Positions 3,881 through 7,611 of a DNA stretch of 64,000 nucleotides are shown piece by piece. The stretch comes from an uncultured Bacilli bacterium. Its GTDB lineage: Bacteria; Bacillota_I; Bacilli_A; RF39; UBA660. The notes below the pieces were generated by a model. It ran no database searches and was not told where the DNA came from. It worked only from the letters and a program-made list of their open reading frames with translations. The DNA lies in contig CAKOXO010000002.1 of the NCBI GenBank assembly GCA_934130165.1, forward strand, positions 192,412 through 256,411, written 5' to 3'. The translations under genes were made by a program, and so were the position numbers. Position 1 is the stretch's first letter; the number at the start of each line of letters is the position of its first letter.

Positions 3881-4324
3881 TTAATTAGCTTTTATATTAC
3901 TTACTAGACTATGAGCTAACTTATCATATTTATTATTACTTTCTACGACCATATCTATTTTAGTAGAAATTGCAATATTTGACTTATCAAAAGTAGCACT
4001 AGTAGATGAATCAACAGCAACACTTACTTTAGGAGGAATTTCATTAACATCATAAAATCTAATTTGATAACTTCTATTATCATCCAATGTTTTCCCAAAG
4101 CGTCTAACAAAGCTTTCTGCAAATTTTTCCTTATCCATTCTTATAGTTCCAGCTTCTCTATAATAACTAGTATCTATAGCATCCTCTATAGCAGCCGATG
4201 TTGTTTCCTTTAATAAATAATAGTCTAATTCTTGACCTGTTGTATAATCTTGAATCAAGTTAATAACTCCCAAGGCAAATAAACTTAATAATATTATACC
4301 AACGGTTAACATTGCTTTATTCAT
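3881..4324 (-). CDS. Small membrane-anchored protein of unknown function (possible minor pilin/TadE-like component)
   Basis: 147 aa with an N-terminal TM helix followed by a soluble domain. Start overlaps the stop of the 1095-aa gene. Confidence 0.35.
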   Translation of the reverse strand: MNKAMLTVGIILLSLFALGVINLIQDYTTGQELDYYLLKETTSAAIEDAIDTSYYREAGTIRMDKEKFAESFVRRFGKTLDDNRSYQIRFYDVNEIPPKVSVAVDSSTSATFDKSNIAISTKIDMVVESNNKYDKLAHSLVSNIKAN

Positions 4325-7300
4325 TATTTTTTCATTGCCTCCTTTGCAGTTTGACTATTCGCACCTGGATTCCATTTTCTAGATGTTATTAGTTTTGTTA
4401 TTTTTCCATCTGTTATTTGATAATAATATAATCCTGGAATACCCGCTACTTTTTTATATTCTCCATTTAGTGTGATATTATTATCACTTTTTTTCAAATC
4501 AGCCATTCCATTTTTAGTTATTTCTATAATCATATCAGCTTCGCCATTATATATACTATCTTTCTTTGCTATAACTTCTTGTGAGTATTTAACCGGGTCC
4601 ACACCATAACCTGTATCATCTAGTGCCTTTTTAATCATTTGATCACTTGAATTTAGTTTAGCATCACTACCCCAGTTATAACCACGTATTCTATCTTTCC
4701 CATTTTTTTGAGGAAAGATTGAAGCATTGTCAGATATACGTATATCATAATTATTTTGAAGTTTAGTTGATTTTTGTTCAGAAAGTGGTTTTCCAGTATC
4801 ATCAATACATTCAGTTTTTTTACCATTATTATTTTTATAACAGGTTTCTTGGCTACCAACAGCTTTTGAGTACGATCCGTAAAAACAACTTAATTCAAAT
4901 GAAGCATCATATTTTCCAAATTTTAACATATTAGCAATTATATTATAATCTATTTCTTCCGGTTTACTAATTTTACTTCCATCAATTGTGCTAGTGCCAT
5001 TTTCGTCTATTGTAGTATTTTCTATAACTTGTTTTGCCCAATCGGCATTAACATCACACGCATTATAAGGTGTACAATAATATGTATCTTTTGCTCTATA
5101 AATATTTTCTTCGGTTGGTTTTTTATATTTCACTTCACCAGTTTTTAGGTTAATCCATGAACCTGGAGTAGTAATTGTTGTTTTATAATGATAAGGATTA
5201 CCTGATATTTCATTTCCATAACATTTTCCATTAATTCCATAACAAACATCATTTTTATCTATAGGCATAAATATTAAATTAGGCCTTTCTTTAATATTTT
5301 CTTCATATTTCGTTTCATCAGTAGGACACTGATTTTTCTTATTTTTCCAATTTTTTCCTTCATCCTTGGTTTCATCTGGACTAGCATTTGTGCATTCTTT
5401 TTCATCTTTACCTTTTTTAGTATCAACCTTTATTTCAAATTCAGCCTCATTATCTGCACACTTATCCGAAGCAATACAAGCTTTAAAGTCATCTATAATA
5501 CCTTCTAATTCTTTAATGTATTTGTCAACTTTCTTTCCACTTTTACTTTGTTTACAGTCAGTTTCCTTAATACCTTCTTCATCCAAAATAAATCCACATT
5601 TTTCTGAACAATGATAAGTATGTGAATGTTGTCTTTTAATACCTCTGTTATCTATTACATAAAATCTTTTTCCATTTTTTCCATTTCTTCCAGTTCCTTC
5701 ACCATAAAATGATTTTAAAGTTTTTGTTGCCCTTGTTGCTGTTGCAAAATAATATGGAGAAGAACGTTTTATATTATTTATAAGGTTGTCAATGTCCATG
5801 GTACCAAATTCTTTTTTTTCACCATTTTCTTCAACTGTTCTAACAAAATAATTTTCTGCATTATATTCTTCAATAGAATACTTTATTTTTTCTCCTTTGT
5901 CATTCTCATATTCACACTTTGCTAATTTAGTATTAAAACAAGGTTTCCATTTTAAATCAACCCAACTAGGCCACTTGTCGTTTTCTCCTTCTTCAAAGTA
6001 ATACCCCATTGGATATTCTTTTTTTAGTTTTGAAAATTTTGCACCACAATCATCCCAATTTTTTTGTATTTCACCTACACTAGTGCAACCGTTTACATTT
6101 TTATAAGGATCAGAAGCTGTTTTTTCAGCCTTATTAGCCAATTTTATAACATTATTTTTATTATTATCTGTATTATTAAGCATTGTTGGCTTTTGTTTTG
6201 TAGTTTTTGAGGTTGTTTTTGTTACTTTGCTTTTTTTAGTATAAATTTTATTATAGCAAGAGTTAATACATTTTTGAGTATATTTTCCACCATCACAAGA
6301 TGAAATACAAGAATCAAACTTTTCATTTGGTCCAGCTTGAGTTTCATTTGAATCATTTTCACACACTGGAGATAAAACACATTGTTTTTGAGTTGGTAAA
6401 ATCAATGTTGGAAATGAAATATCCCCCTTCATTTCAGTCTTACATGCTACCTTTGATTTTATAGTAACCGTATAATTAAAGCAAAGACCTGCTTTTACAA
6501 CTTGAGGTGGAGAATAAGTTATTTCATAGTTTTCACGACAAGTTACTTTACACGCATTATTATCTACTTCTGTTTTTTCATAATAATATTTTTTGATAAG
6601 TTCACTTTGAAAATCAGTAGCTTTGCAATTAAATTTATTGTCATCTAAATTAGTAATTTCAGCATATCCCTCTTTTGGAAGGTTTTTATACTCCTCATTA
6701 TTTTGAGATTTTTTTTGTGTCTGATAATAATAATAGAAAGCTTCCAAAGATTTTTTTCTTATTTCTTTTATATCACTAGCCTTTATGGTATAATCTGCAT
6801 CATATGTATTACCTGGATAACAAAAGGAAAATGATTTTTGCATCTCCTTTTGATAAGCTTCGTGCATTTCGTTTGACATATTATCATCTAAACCTTTGTA
6901 TGAAAAGTAATTATTTTGAGAATCTGTTTTCAGCTTAGACCCTCGCATCGCTTCACATTCCCTTTTTGCTTTTTCTGATAATTCTTTTGGTTGATGTGAA
7001 GATGCTAAGGAAACTATAGTCCTATTTAGCGCTGCACCAGTACCTTTAAAACTTATTTTATTATCTTCTGTTATGGAAAATCCACCAGATTTACATGTTG
7101 TTTTTTTTGTTTGATCATAAGTAACATATAACTCATTTCCATCTTTACTTAAAACGTGATTATCCTTATTACCCTTAGCAAGTGCAATAACATATAACAT
7201 TTGAGTGTCTTTTCCTCTTGATATTGGAATAGAAGAGGGAGATCCACCTTTATACTCATAATGGTTAGTATTATTTTTTATTGTTCCTTTTTCTGTTACA

Positions 7301-7611
7301 ATATCATACCAATCAGTATCATCAGCATCAGCCAATTTATAATAAATATCCCATTGACCTTCTCCAGCATTTATAGTTAACGTATAGGTGGTACCGTTGT
7401 TATCTTTTTTAACATTTAACAGTTTATTAGTTCTTAATGTATTTGCACAAGCTTTGTCAGCCTTAGATCCGCCACTACTTGCTGATGTTGAAGAATTACT
7501 ATCATTAGTATTTTTCCCAAAAGCATTGAATGGAACAATAAAAATTCCAACAAATATAATCAATATCAACCCTATTTTATTTTTTATACTATGCATCTTC
7601 ATCAGCTCCAT
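4324..7611 (-). CDS. Large secreted Cys-rich, Lys-rich protein (putative adhesin/pilus-associated protein)
   Basis: 1095 aa. N-terminal signal peptide (LILIIFVGIFIVPFNAFG). About 40 cysteines spread along the chain in CxxC-like and CxnC patterns. Many KK/KKK runs. No LPXTG signal and no C-terminal TM. Overlaps the sortase gene by 23 nt. Confidence 0.55.
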   Translation of the reverse strand: MELMKMHSIKNKIGLILIIFVGIFIVPFNAFGKNTNDSNSSTSASSGGSKADKACANTLRTNKLLNVKKDNNGTTYTLTINAGEGQWDIYYKLADADDTDWYDIVTEKGTIKNNTNHYEYKGGSPSSIPISRGKDTQMLYVIALAKGNKDNHVLSKDGNELYVTYDQTKKTTCKSGGFSITEDNKISFKGTGAALNRTIVSLASSHQPKELSEKAKRECEAMRGSKLKTDSQNNYFSYKGLDDNMSNEMHEAYQKEMQKSFSFCYPGNTYDADYTIKASDIKEIRKKSLEAFYYYYQTQKKSQNNEEYKNLPKEGYAEITNLDDNKFNCKATDFQSELIKKYYYEKTEVDNNACKVTCRENYEITYSPPQVVKAGLCFNYTVTIKSKVACKTEMKGDISFPTLILPTQKQCVLSPVCENDSNETQAGPNEKFDSCISSCDGGKYTQKCINSCYNKIYTKKSKVTKTTSKTTKQKPTMLNNTDNNKNNVIKLANKAEKTASDPYKNVNGCTSVGEIQKNWDDCGAKFSKLKKEYPMGYYFEEGENDKWPSWVDLKWKPCFNTKLAKCEYENDKGEKIKYSIEEYNAENYFVRTVEENGEKKEFGTMDIDNLINNIKRSSPYYFATATRATKTLKSFYGEGTGRNGKNGKRFYVIDNRGIKRQHSHTYHCSEKCGFILDEEGIKETDCKQSKSGKKVDKYIKELEGIIDDFKACIASDKCADNEAEFEIKVDTKKGKDEKECTNASPDETKDEGKNWKNKKNQCPTDETKYEENIKERPNLIFMPIDKNDVCYGINGKCYGNEISGNPYHYKTTITTPGSWINLKTGEVKYKKPTEENIYRAKDTYYCTPYNACDVNADWAKQVIENTTIDENGTSTIDGSKISKPEEIDYNIIANMLKFGKYDASFELSCFYGSYSKAVGSQETCYKNNNGKKTECIDDTGKPLSEQKSTKLQNNYDIRISDNASIFPQKNGKDRIRGYNWGSDAKLNSSDQMIKKALDDTGYGVDPVKYSQEVIAKKDSIYNGEADMIIEITKNGMADLKKSDNNITLNGEYKKVAGIPGLYYYQITDGKITKLITSRKWNPGANSQTAKEAMKK

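Follow-up and report, generated by a model that had tools for sequence, protein, structure and literature searches.

A large cysteine-rich exported protein encoded in a conserved Tad-like and type IV secretion gene cluster of uncultured gut Bacilli

The BIG locus and its conserved gene block

We analysed a 64,000-nucleotide (nt) stretch of DNA, called the window throughout, from an uncultured Bacilli bacterium of the RF39 lineage (GenBank assembly GCA_934130165.1, contig CAKOXO010000002.1, positions 192,412 to 256,411 of the forward strand). The window is chromosomal, encoding Lon, DnaE, trigger factor and BipA, and has a G+C content of 25.7%. It carries the gene for a cysteine (Cys)-rich exported protein of 1095 amino acids (aa), for which we use the working label BIG. 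The BIG gene lies within a block of nine genes of fixed order and strand, encoding a DUF4352 protein, an immunoglobulin (Ig)-like protein, a sortase, BIG, a DUF5411 protein, a CpaB-like protein, an ATPase and two membrane proteins; within the window, neighbouring genes of the block either adjoin or overlap. A relative of BIG was encoded in 228 stretches of a species-level genome collection (at least 228 species), from which 77 loci from different species were kept for all locus counts given here. Each gene of the block was found in 66 to 77 of these 77 loci. We infer that BIG serves as a surface or accessory component in a type IV secretion or type IV filament machine encoded by an unusual hybrid cluster. 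The initial annotation missed this context, in which BIG is a fixed part of a Tad-like and type IV secretion gene cluster and not of a sortase-pilus locus.

The open reading frame (ORF) ends in a stop codon at 4324-4326 and is uninterrupted across 1095 codons, so that the frame first assigned to it stood, whereas its strand is minus. Public gene callers start the protein at Met6, giving 1090 aa, and Met6 at 7596 is the likely true start. An identical 1090-aa protein was present on other contigs, and proteins 98.5-100% identical were found on several contigs from independent gut metagenome samples. Because of these independent copies the ORF is neither a sequencing artefact nor a pseudogene, the latter being one of the outcomes that had been named as refuting the initial annotation. 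Within the species BIG proteins were 98.5-99.8% identical. The 5' end of the BIG gene overlaps the 3' end of the sortase gene by 8-23 nt, as had been reported.

The neighbouring genes of the block were assigned by profile and structure-database searches (Table 1). The sortase has as its nearest PDB chains proteins annotated as sortase B (E 2e-11), and at least 90% of 74 orthologues retain its His98, Cys202 (in TLVTC) and Arg219/222. The nearest PDB chains of the ATPase were FlaI and CpaF at E about 1e-19, followed by VirB11 at 2e-13. The DUF5411 protein may be a minor pilin-like partner of BIG. The two membrane proteins showed no similarity to Pfam families (including T2SSF), to PDB entries or, by hhalign, to each other; the labels TadB and TadC were therefore rejected, as the Pfam, PDB-profile and mutual hhalign comparisons gave them no support, and the proteins are positional analogues only. 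They form a conserved unnamed pair, 65-87% identical across species where BIG is 21-60% identical. Sortase modules of gut megaplasmids ('Hodor') were considered as relatives of the cluster and rejected as unrelated, having 45-47% G+C and different genes.

The cluster continues beyond the window, and this continuation was read from two further contigs, L078 (a 100%-identical contig; 17627-23273) and L081 (VirB6-like protein 91% identical; 7390-21051). It comprises genes for a pilin-like protein of about 50 aa, a pilin-like protein of about 143 aa and a 327-aa protein, followed by two PF18895 type IV secretion system (T4SS)-pilin-like (VirB2-like) genes and genes for VirB6/TrbL-like, VirB3-like and VirB4 proteins, VirB4 being called as two overlapping ORFs (185 and 596 aa). 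Contig L078 ends at the start of VirB4 and the later genes are known from L081, where a SpoIID-domain hydrolase, a 259-aa protein, VirD4 and a 428-aa paralogue of the Ig-like protein are encoded before housekeeping genes. The gene for the pilin-like protein of about 50 aa was present downstream in 58 of the 59 loci reaching far enough, and the T4SS_pilin and VirB6 genes in 49 and 44, respectively, of 53 such loci. No relaxase or integrase was seen in the block or in the continuation on L078 and L081, and neither a prepilin peptidase nor TadZ was recognised. The T4SS of the cluster is chromosomal and apparently non-mobile, and it belongs to a monoderm.

BIG is the fastest-evolving and most often duplicated gene of the block. 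Median identities to the window genes were highest for the ATPase (85%) and the two membrane proteins (72-73%), lower for CpaB (63%), DUF5411 (57%) and the sortase (46%), and lowest, at about 40%, for the Ig-like and DUF4352 proteins. Across species BIG gave 0.10 bits per residue, from a short conserved match only, as compared to 0.48-1.45 for its neighbours. Variation was highest in the N-terminal third and in residues 476-650, and conservation was highest in residues 351-460. In L057 (9217-20882) the set of sortase, BIG and DUF5411 genes occurs twice in tandem. In L013 (5992-12765) a DUF4352, Ig-like and BIG set lies at the contig end, followed by a terminator-like hairpin, and a separate full locus, L002, is present in the same metagenome-assembled genome. 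Breaks of contigs were seen in or near BIG.

BIG has no family match in Pfam, NCBIfam or PHROGs, and a sequence-profile search of the PDB returned nothing at E <= 1. A scan of IMG/VR found no relatives, and this lack of a viral relative ruled out a phage origin. A word-indexed search returned 59 unnamed relatives of about 880-1265 aa, and an exhaustive profile search returned 768 clusters at 50% identity, 542 of them below E 1e-30; the best 150 of the 768 were about 830-1250 aa long and nearly all aligned over most of the profile. Almost all of the 77 loci carried the labels uncultured Bacilli, 'Tenericutes', Mycoplasma sp. CAG:877, Clostridium sp. CAG:417 or Candidatus Onthousia, and they came from human, mouse, rabbit, ruminant and chicken guts, one being a closed 1.52-Mb chromosome. 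NCBI places Candidatus Onthousia and Faecimonas in Bacilli incertae sedis. The host thus belongs to a gut lineage of Bacilli that is uncultured and has small genomes, and it is no clostridial anaerobe of the classical kind. In the literature, including that on RF39-type Bacilli, no description of the Bacilli cluster or of the BIG family was found; the family is uncharacterised and the feature is real.

Two further regions of the window were noted. Directly upstream of the block a 420-aa K/E-rich protein is encoded on the minus strand (11800-13062); it has no family match and is lineage-specific, as it was found in only 3 of the 77 loci. Further on, a tRNA gene (50052-50122) is followed by two genes, one for a large serine recombinase (50759-52498) and the other for a Mob_Pre/MOBV relaxase (55057-56292). 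This region (50052-56292) resembles an integrative mobilisable element without a transfer apparatus of its own, which could use the chromosomal T4SS.

Table 1. Features of the BIG locus with their positions in the window. Fractions of 77 are counts of loci carrying the gene.
Feature	Position	Strand	Basis
DUF4352-like ectodomain polytopic membrane protein, 519 aa (first block gene)	10165..11724	minus	weak PF11611, below cut-off; 68/77
Ig-like membrane-anchored surface protein, 602 aa	8349..10157	minus	PF16403, E 3e-16; 74/77; two close Cys pairs
Class B-type sortase, translationally coupled to BIG	7589..8347	minus	Pfam Sortase, 30.2 bits, above cut-off; 73/77
BIG gene, 1095 codons	4324..7611	minus	ORF and translation; near-identical proteins elsewhere
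BIG: Sec-type signal peptide, residues 1-32	7516..7611	minus	read from sequence; conserved layout
BIG: variable Ig/FN3-like beta-sandwich, about residues 60-200 (predicted)	7012..7434	minus	
BIG: variable helical region, about residues 213-310	6682..6975	minus	AlphaFold2 (AF2) secondary structure; low conservation
BIG: conserved beta-rich Cys core, about residues 325-457	6241..6639	minus	highest conservation, invariant Cys columns
BIG: twin C-x3-C helix-turn-helix, residues 430-457	6241-6324	minus	AF2 helices
BIG: K/T/N-rich low-complexity linker, residues 458-495	6127..6240	minus	predicted local distance difference test score (pLDDT) below 50 in both models
BIG: mixed alpha/beta C-terminal half, residues 496-1079 (predicted)	4375..6126	minus	
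BIG: C-terminal motif N-P-G-A-N, residues 1081-1085	4357..4371	minus	family motif [LIVP]-G-x-N-[NS]
DUF5411 protein, 147 aa, N-terminal membrane helix	3881..4324	minus	PF17424, E 2e-46; 73/77
CpaB/RcpC-like protein, 267 aa	3059..3862	minus	TIGR03177, E 3e-8 and PF16976, E 9e-5, both below cut-off; 72/77
CpaF/FlaI-type secretion ATPase, 425 aa	1749..3026	minus	PF00437 T2SSE, 95 bits; 72/77
Two polytopic membrane proteins, 297 and 260 aa	60..1735 (60-842, 842-1735)	minus	position only; 67/77, 66/77
PF20207 (DUF6568/PedC-like) membrane-anchored protein	13716..14252	minus	E 6e-35

Export, cysteines and predicted structure of BIG

The N-terminus of BIG was read manually and consists of a basic lysine (Lys)-rich n-region, a 16-residue hydrophobic core and the residues A-F-G followed by K, with cleavage predicted after A-F-G. 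This n/h/c layout with an AxA-type cleavage site was kept in 59 of 59 first-round homologues, bearing out the signal peptide that had been proposed. Neither a lipobox nor a class III prepilin motif is present at the N-terminus. BIG was also considered as a type IV pilin or pseudopilin and this was rejected, as its signal peptide is of type I, with an AxA site, and its mature N-terminus is polar. LPXTG is absent from BIG and from 188 relatives, in agreement with the initial annotation.

Cys composition was then compared with that of the window. BIG contains 33 Cys (3.0%) as compared to 1.13% in the long ORFs of the window; it is therefore unusually Cys-rich, although not to the count of about 40 given previously. 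Four C-x3-C pairs (354/358, 435/439, 448/452 and 668/672) and three C-x5-C pairs were found, whereas the BIG sequence has no CxxC motif, a spacing that had also been listed. Close spacing of this kind was not above chance, with 543 of 2000 random placements matching or exceeding the observed number. The signal for Cys pairing therefore comes from conservation across the family and not from spacing in the single sequence. BIG is 13.5% Lys as compared to an average of 10.8% for window ORFs, with 18 KK pairs against 20 expected from composition (1466 of 2000 shuffles reached 18) and no KKK against 2.7 expected. Shuffling thus ruled out poly-Lys runs as a feature of BIG, and the argument that such runs point to an adhesin or toxin fell with them, the Lys content being the ordinary composition of a 25.7% G+C genome. 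The premise that exported proteins of Firmicutes are Cys-poor holds mainly for aerobic species and less for anaerobic ones, Cys-free proteins making up 70% of exported proteins in aerobic Firmicutes as compared to 33% in anaerobic Firmicutes (PMC2823432). For an anaerobe the Cys count of BIG is extreme, and the presence of Cys is in itself not anomalous.

Conservation of Cys was assessed in an alignment of 188 BIG family members. Eighteen Cys columns were kept in at least 180 of the 188 and six more in at least 156, about 24 in total at 80% or above, and members carried a mean of 33 Cys (range 25-47). Cys outside these columns changed together: 558/566 were gained or lost jointly (phi 0.93), 740/790/852 co-varied (phi 0.90-0.95) and so did a C-terminal Cys pair (phi 0.95). 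The stretch C435-x3-C439-x8-C448-x3-C452 was invariant or nearly so and is the most conserved of BIG. In the AF2 model this twin C-x3-C sits on predicted antiparallel helices (430-440 and 446-457), giving it the modelled geometry of twin CX3C helical hairpins. His makes up 0.8% of the protein. Structural disulfides are favoured over metal sites because the Cys are conserved and co-varying, a helical hairpin is predicted, CxxC knuckles are absent, there is little His and neighbouring proteins have paired Cys. The description of BIG as exported and probably disulfide-bonded is thus supported by the signal peptide, the roughly 24 conserved columns and the paired gain and loss of Cys.

Other proteins of the cluster show a similar pattern. 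The Ig-like, DUF4352, 143-aa pilin-like, 259-aa and 428-aa extracellular proteins have close, even-numbered Cys pairs (window 8349-11724; L081 7598-21051), and in both VirB2-like pilins a single Cys lies close to either end of the mature part, suggesting that the organism routinely oxidises its exported proteins. A thioredoxin-like gene at 13716 had been put forward as encoding a dedicated thiol-disulfide oxidoreductase. Its product matched PF20207 and has C-T-[AS]-x4-C-R (C-x6-C) in 12 of 12 orthologues, with no CxxC there; the gene lies outside the core block. As it was found within 10 kb of BIG in just 12 of the 77 loci, it is a weak candidate for such a partner.

Structure prediction with AF2 gave a full-length model with a pLDDT of 75.6, and a model of residues 205-1095 from a broader alignment with a pLDDT of 83.3 and a predicted template modelling score of 0.68. 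The Cys core contains residues 329, 354, 358, 377, 390, 411, 417, 435, 439, 448 and 452, and was the sole stretch detected by tblastn in distant loci, the best high-scoring segment pair covering about 14% of BIG. It is separated from the C-terminal half, with conserved Cys at 668, 672, 686, 712, 718, 797, 846, 909 and 935, by a variable, gap-rich linker (458-495) predicted to be disordered. A Foldseek search for BIG against the PDB returned nothing below E 1e-3. About 890 residues of BIG are therefore without a recognisable solved relative in the PDB.

Proposed role of BIG and alternative readings

Taking these data together we consider it somewhat probable that BIG is a Sec-exported, multi-domain extracellular surface or adhesin subunit of a chromosomal, relaxase-less machine that joins a Tad/archaellum-type module to a Gram-positive T4SS. 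The Tad-type module of such a machine would consist of the CpaF/FlaI-like ATPase, the CpaB-like protein, the two platform-like membrane proteins and the small pilin-like proteins, and the T4SS part of the VirB2-like pilins, VirB6, the VirB3-like protein, VirB4, the wall hydrolase and VirD4. The signal peptide would be removed and BIG would then fold outside the membrane, where about 12 conserved disulfides, including those of the twin C-x3-C alpha-hairpin, would staple the fold. The core (about 350-460) and the C-terminal half could dock on the DUF5411, pilin-like, Ig-like and DUF4352 proteins, or on the wall via the sortase, and the fast-diverging Ig-like and helical domains at the N-terminus would point outward, binding a target surface. 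The role of BIG would be analogous, not homologous, to that of TraN, PrgB or PilY1. As the most variable protein of the cluster, with no known fold, BIG is the obvious candidate for what the machine touches. The suggestion of an adhesin- or toxin-like surface protein thus remains plausible as to surface and adhesin, from fast evolution and the machine locus, whereas the Lys argument and a toxin fold found no support.

We infer the adhesin or surface role, the exposure, the docking and the disulfides from sequence and analogy, and several points weigh against this assignment. The only arguments for adhesion are fast evolution and analogy, and the Tad-like genes and the T4SS genes might encode two separate machines lying side by side. 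After cleavage BIG would have no visible tether, as LPXTG, an anchor and a lipobox are all missing. The Cys count was odd in 125 of the 188 members, so that at least one thiol may be free or otherwise used, and a strict gut anaerobe would require an oxidant or an enzyme to form disulfides.

How BIG might be retained at the surface leads to the sortase encoded next to it. We regard it as unlikely, though the best of the alternatives, that BIG is a non-canonical sortase substrate whose C-terminal [LIVP]-G-x-N-N is recognised, followed by wall linkage or by polymerisation or capping of a pilus-like fibre. The sole near-match to a sorting pentapeptide in BIG is N-P-G-A-N, which is reminiscent of NPQTN, the S. 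aureus sortase B signal, and G-x-N-[N/S..] was found within the last 45 aa of 142 of the 188 relatives as compared to 12% by chance. Among the 20 tails inspected, those without it mostly showed C-N-N, and residue 1082 is P/L polymorphic within the species. The sortase has an intact His/Cys/Arg set, its gene shows translational coupling to that of BIG, and both genes are found together in 73 of the 77 loci; the sortase, BIG and DUF5411 genes were duplicated jointly in L057, and no canonical sorting signal was seen in the other proteins of the cluster. The conserved motif together with the coupled sortase suggests a candidate non-canonical sorting signal, and if this is true the known rules for sortase substrates would be widened. 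However, a C-terminal hydrophobic 15-mer was found in 0 of 188 family members, as was the combination of a membrane-holding hydrophobic segment and a basic tail, and this missing anchor counts against such a signal. In addition, 31 proteins terminate one residue past the motif, the Pro position of known sorting signals is mostly Leu or Ile in the family, two BIG copies (L013 and L024) have no adjacent sortase match, and in half of the family the motif lies inside a probable small disulfide loop.

It is a step less likely again that BIG is a wall-spanning scaffold or channel element, taking in a monoderm the place of outer-membrane core or secretin parts and having no part in adhesion or target recognition. 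Such an element would fit the fixed operon place beside CpaB, which bridges to the secretin in Tad systems, as well as the large, predicted rigid and disulfide-stapled architecture with its conserved core and C-terminal half. It is difficult to reconcile with BIG being the fastest-evolving gene of the block and with the second, divergent copy in some genomes, which would be unusual for a core channel, and no oligomeric ring-forming fold was recognised in BIG.

That BIG is instead a released effector or toxin, or serves in metal binding or redox chemistry with Cys that bind Zn or Fe or act catalytically, appears very improbable. The cleavable signal peptide without an anchor, the odd Cys count of most members, the anoxic habitat and the ability of the twin C-x3-C motif to bind Zn when reduced (as in small Tim proteins) would allow it. 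Against it, searches of BIG detected neither a fold nor a domain of an enzyme or toxin, there are no CxxC pairs or Cys4 knuckles and very little His, variable Cys change in twos and not fours, Sec export makes BIG an unlikely T4SS substrate, and its strict place in the operon is more in keeping with a machine part than with cargo.

Extending the assignment of BIG as an extracellular subunit further, we offer one bolder proposal, which we hold to be unlikely as a whole. BIG would be the target-recognition subunit of an undescribed hybrid nanomachine, in which a Tad/archaellum-type motor and pilins are fused to a VirB4/VirB6/VirD4 system as a vertically inherited core trait of small-genome gut Bacilli. 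It would be attached via an anchor-less G-x-N-N sortase signal and disulfide-folded extracytoplasmically in a strict anaerobe, and it would serve cell-to-cell dependence (uptake from or exchange with bacteria or host), like the essential T4SS of Patescibacteria, and not plasmid transfer. BIG offers a handle on the cell interactions of abundant, uncultured, auxotrophic gut Bacilli and lends itself to testing whether exported proteins of anaerobic Firmicutes fold in a disulfide-dependent way.

Comparison with known systems

PilY1/PilC-type tip proteins are variable, Sec-exported non-pilin proteins of about 1000 aa, encoded among the minor-pilin-like genes of type IV filament systems and with a proposed location at the tip of the fibre. 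BIG is like them in size, export, gene setting and variability. The C-terminal beta-propeller and/or vWA domain of PilY1/PilC was not found in BIG.

TraN, which stabilises mating pairs in F-type conjugation, is like BIG large, Sec-exported and encoded among type IV secretion genes. Its conserved Cys number about 22, every one of them predicted to be in an intramolecular disulfide, as compared to about 24 conserved Cys columns in BIG, and it combines a conserved core with a variable beta-sandwich 'tip' that sets recipient or partner specificity (PMC9246713); BIG has a variable N-terminal sandwich. F plasmids carry thioredoxin-like helper genes, e.g. trbB. TraN differs in being an outer-membrane protein of diderms of about 600 aa, whereas BIG has 1095 aa and belongs to a monoderm, beside sortase and Tad-like genes. 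The likeness is a resemblance in kind and not evidence of homology; homology of BIG to TraN was considered and rejected, as hhalign of the family profile against F TraN gave a probability of 0.08% and there was no Pfam match.

PrgB of pCF10 is a sortase-anchored surface adhesin encoded with a Gram-positive T4SS that makes the cell contact for transfer (PMC12857230). Unlike PrgB-type proteins BIG is Cys-rich and lacks LPXTG, a hydrophobic anchor, a basic tail and a Pfam adhesin domain, and a dedicated class B-type sortase is encoded within its operon. The TED or CnaB/CnaA-type folds of Gram-positive adhesins were not found in BIG.

A predicted 'secretion-related' operon described by Miller et al. 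in 2022 also shares features with the cluster, having eight to nine genes, a CpaF-type ATPase, a PilC/GspF-like protein and DUF5411 (PMC9523054). It was reported from Roseburia, Ruminococcus and Eubacterium, which are Clostridia and not Bacilli, and the components listed for it are 24-478 aa; the operon is not described as being linked to VirB4, VirB6 or VirD4, and a search of the supplements found no sortase (PMC9523054). When DUF5411 homologues were searched for with these clostridial operons in mind, the matches listed were all from the same Bacilli clade as BIG. The cluster resembles Tad (Flp) loci in its ATPase, nearest to CpaF/FlaI, its CpaB/RcpC-like protein, the two membrane proteins following the ATPase and the downstream pilin-like gene of about 50 aa. 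It differs from them in that no T2SSF domain, prepilin peptidase or TadZ was recognised and BIG has no counterpart in described Tad loci.

Among T4SSs a parallel is found in Southlakia epibionticum (Patescibacteria), a small-genome monoderm whose T4SS is chromosomal and not obviously mobile, with VirB1-, B3-, B4-, B6-, B8- and D4-like parts and VirB2-like pilin genes (PMC12857230). It belongs to another phylum, and no BIG relative, sortase or CpaF/CpaB module was reported there. In Patescibacteria a chromosomal T4SS with VirB2-like pilins is essential for epibiotic growth (PMC12857230; PMC12102498). According to reviews, Gram-positive T4SSs are without VirB11-type ATPases; they are also said to be without pili and VirB2/VirB5, and here Patescibacteria are the exception (PMC12857230). 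In contrast to this picture, a large uncultured gut clade keeps, with no relaxase, a CpaF/FlaI-type ATPase, pilin-like genes, a sortase and BIG joined to a chromosomal VirB4/VirB6/VirD4 system.

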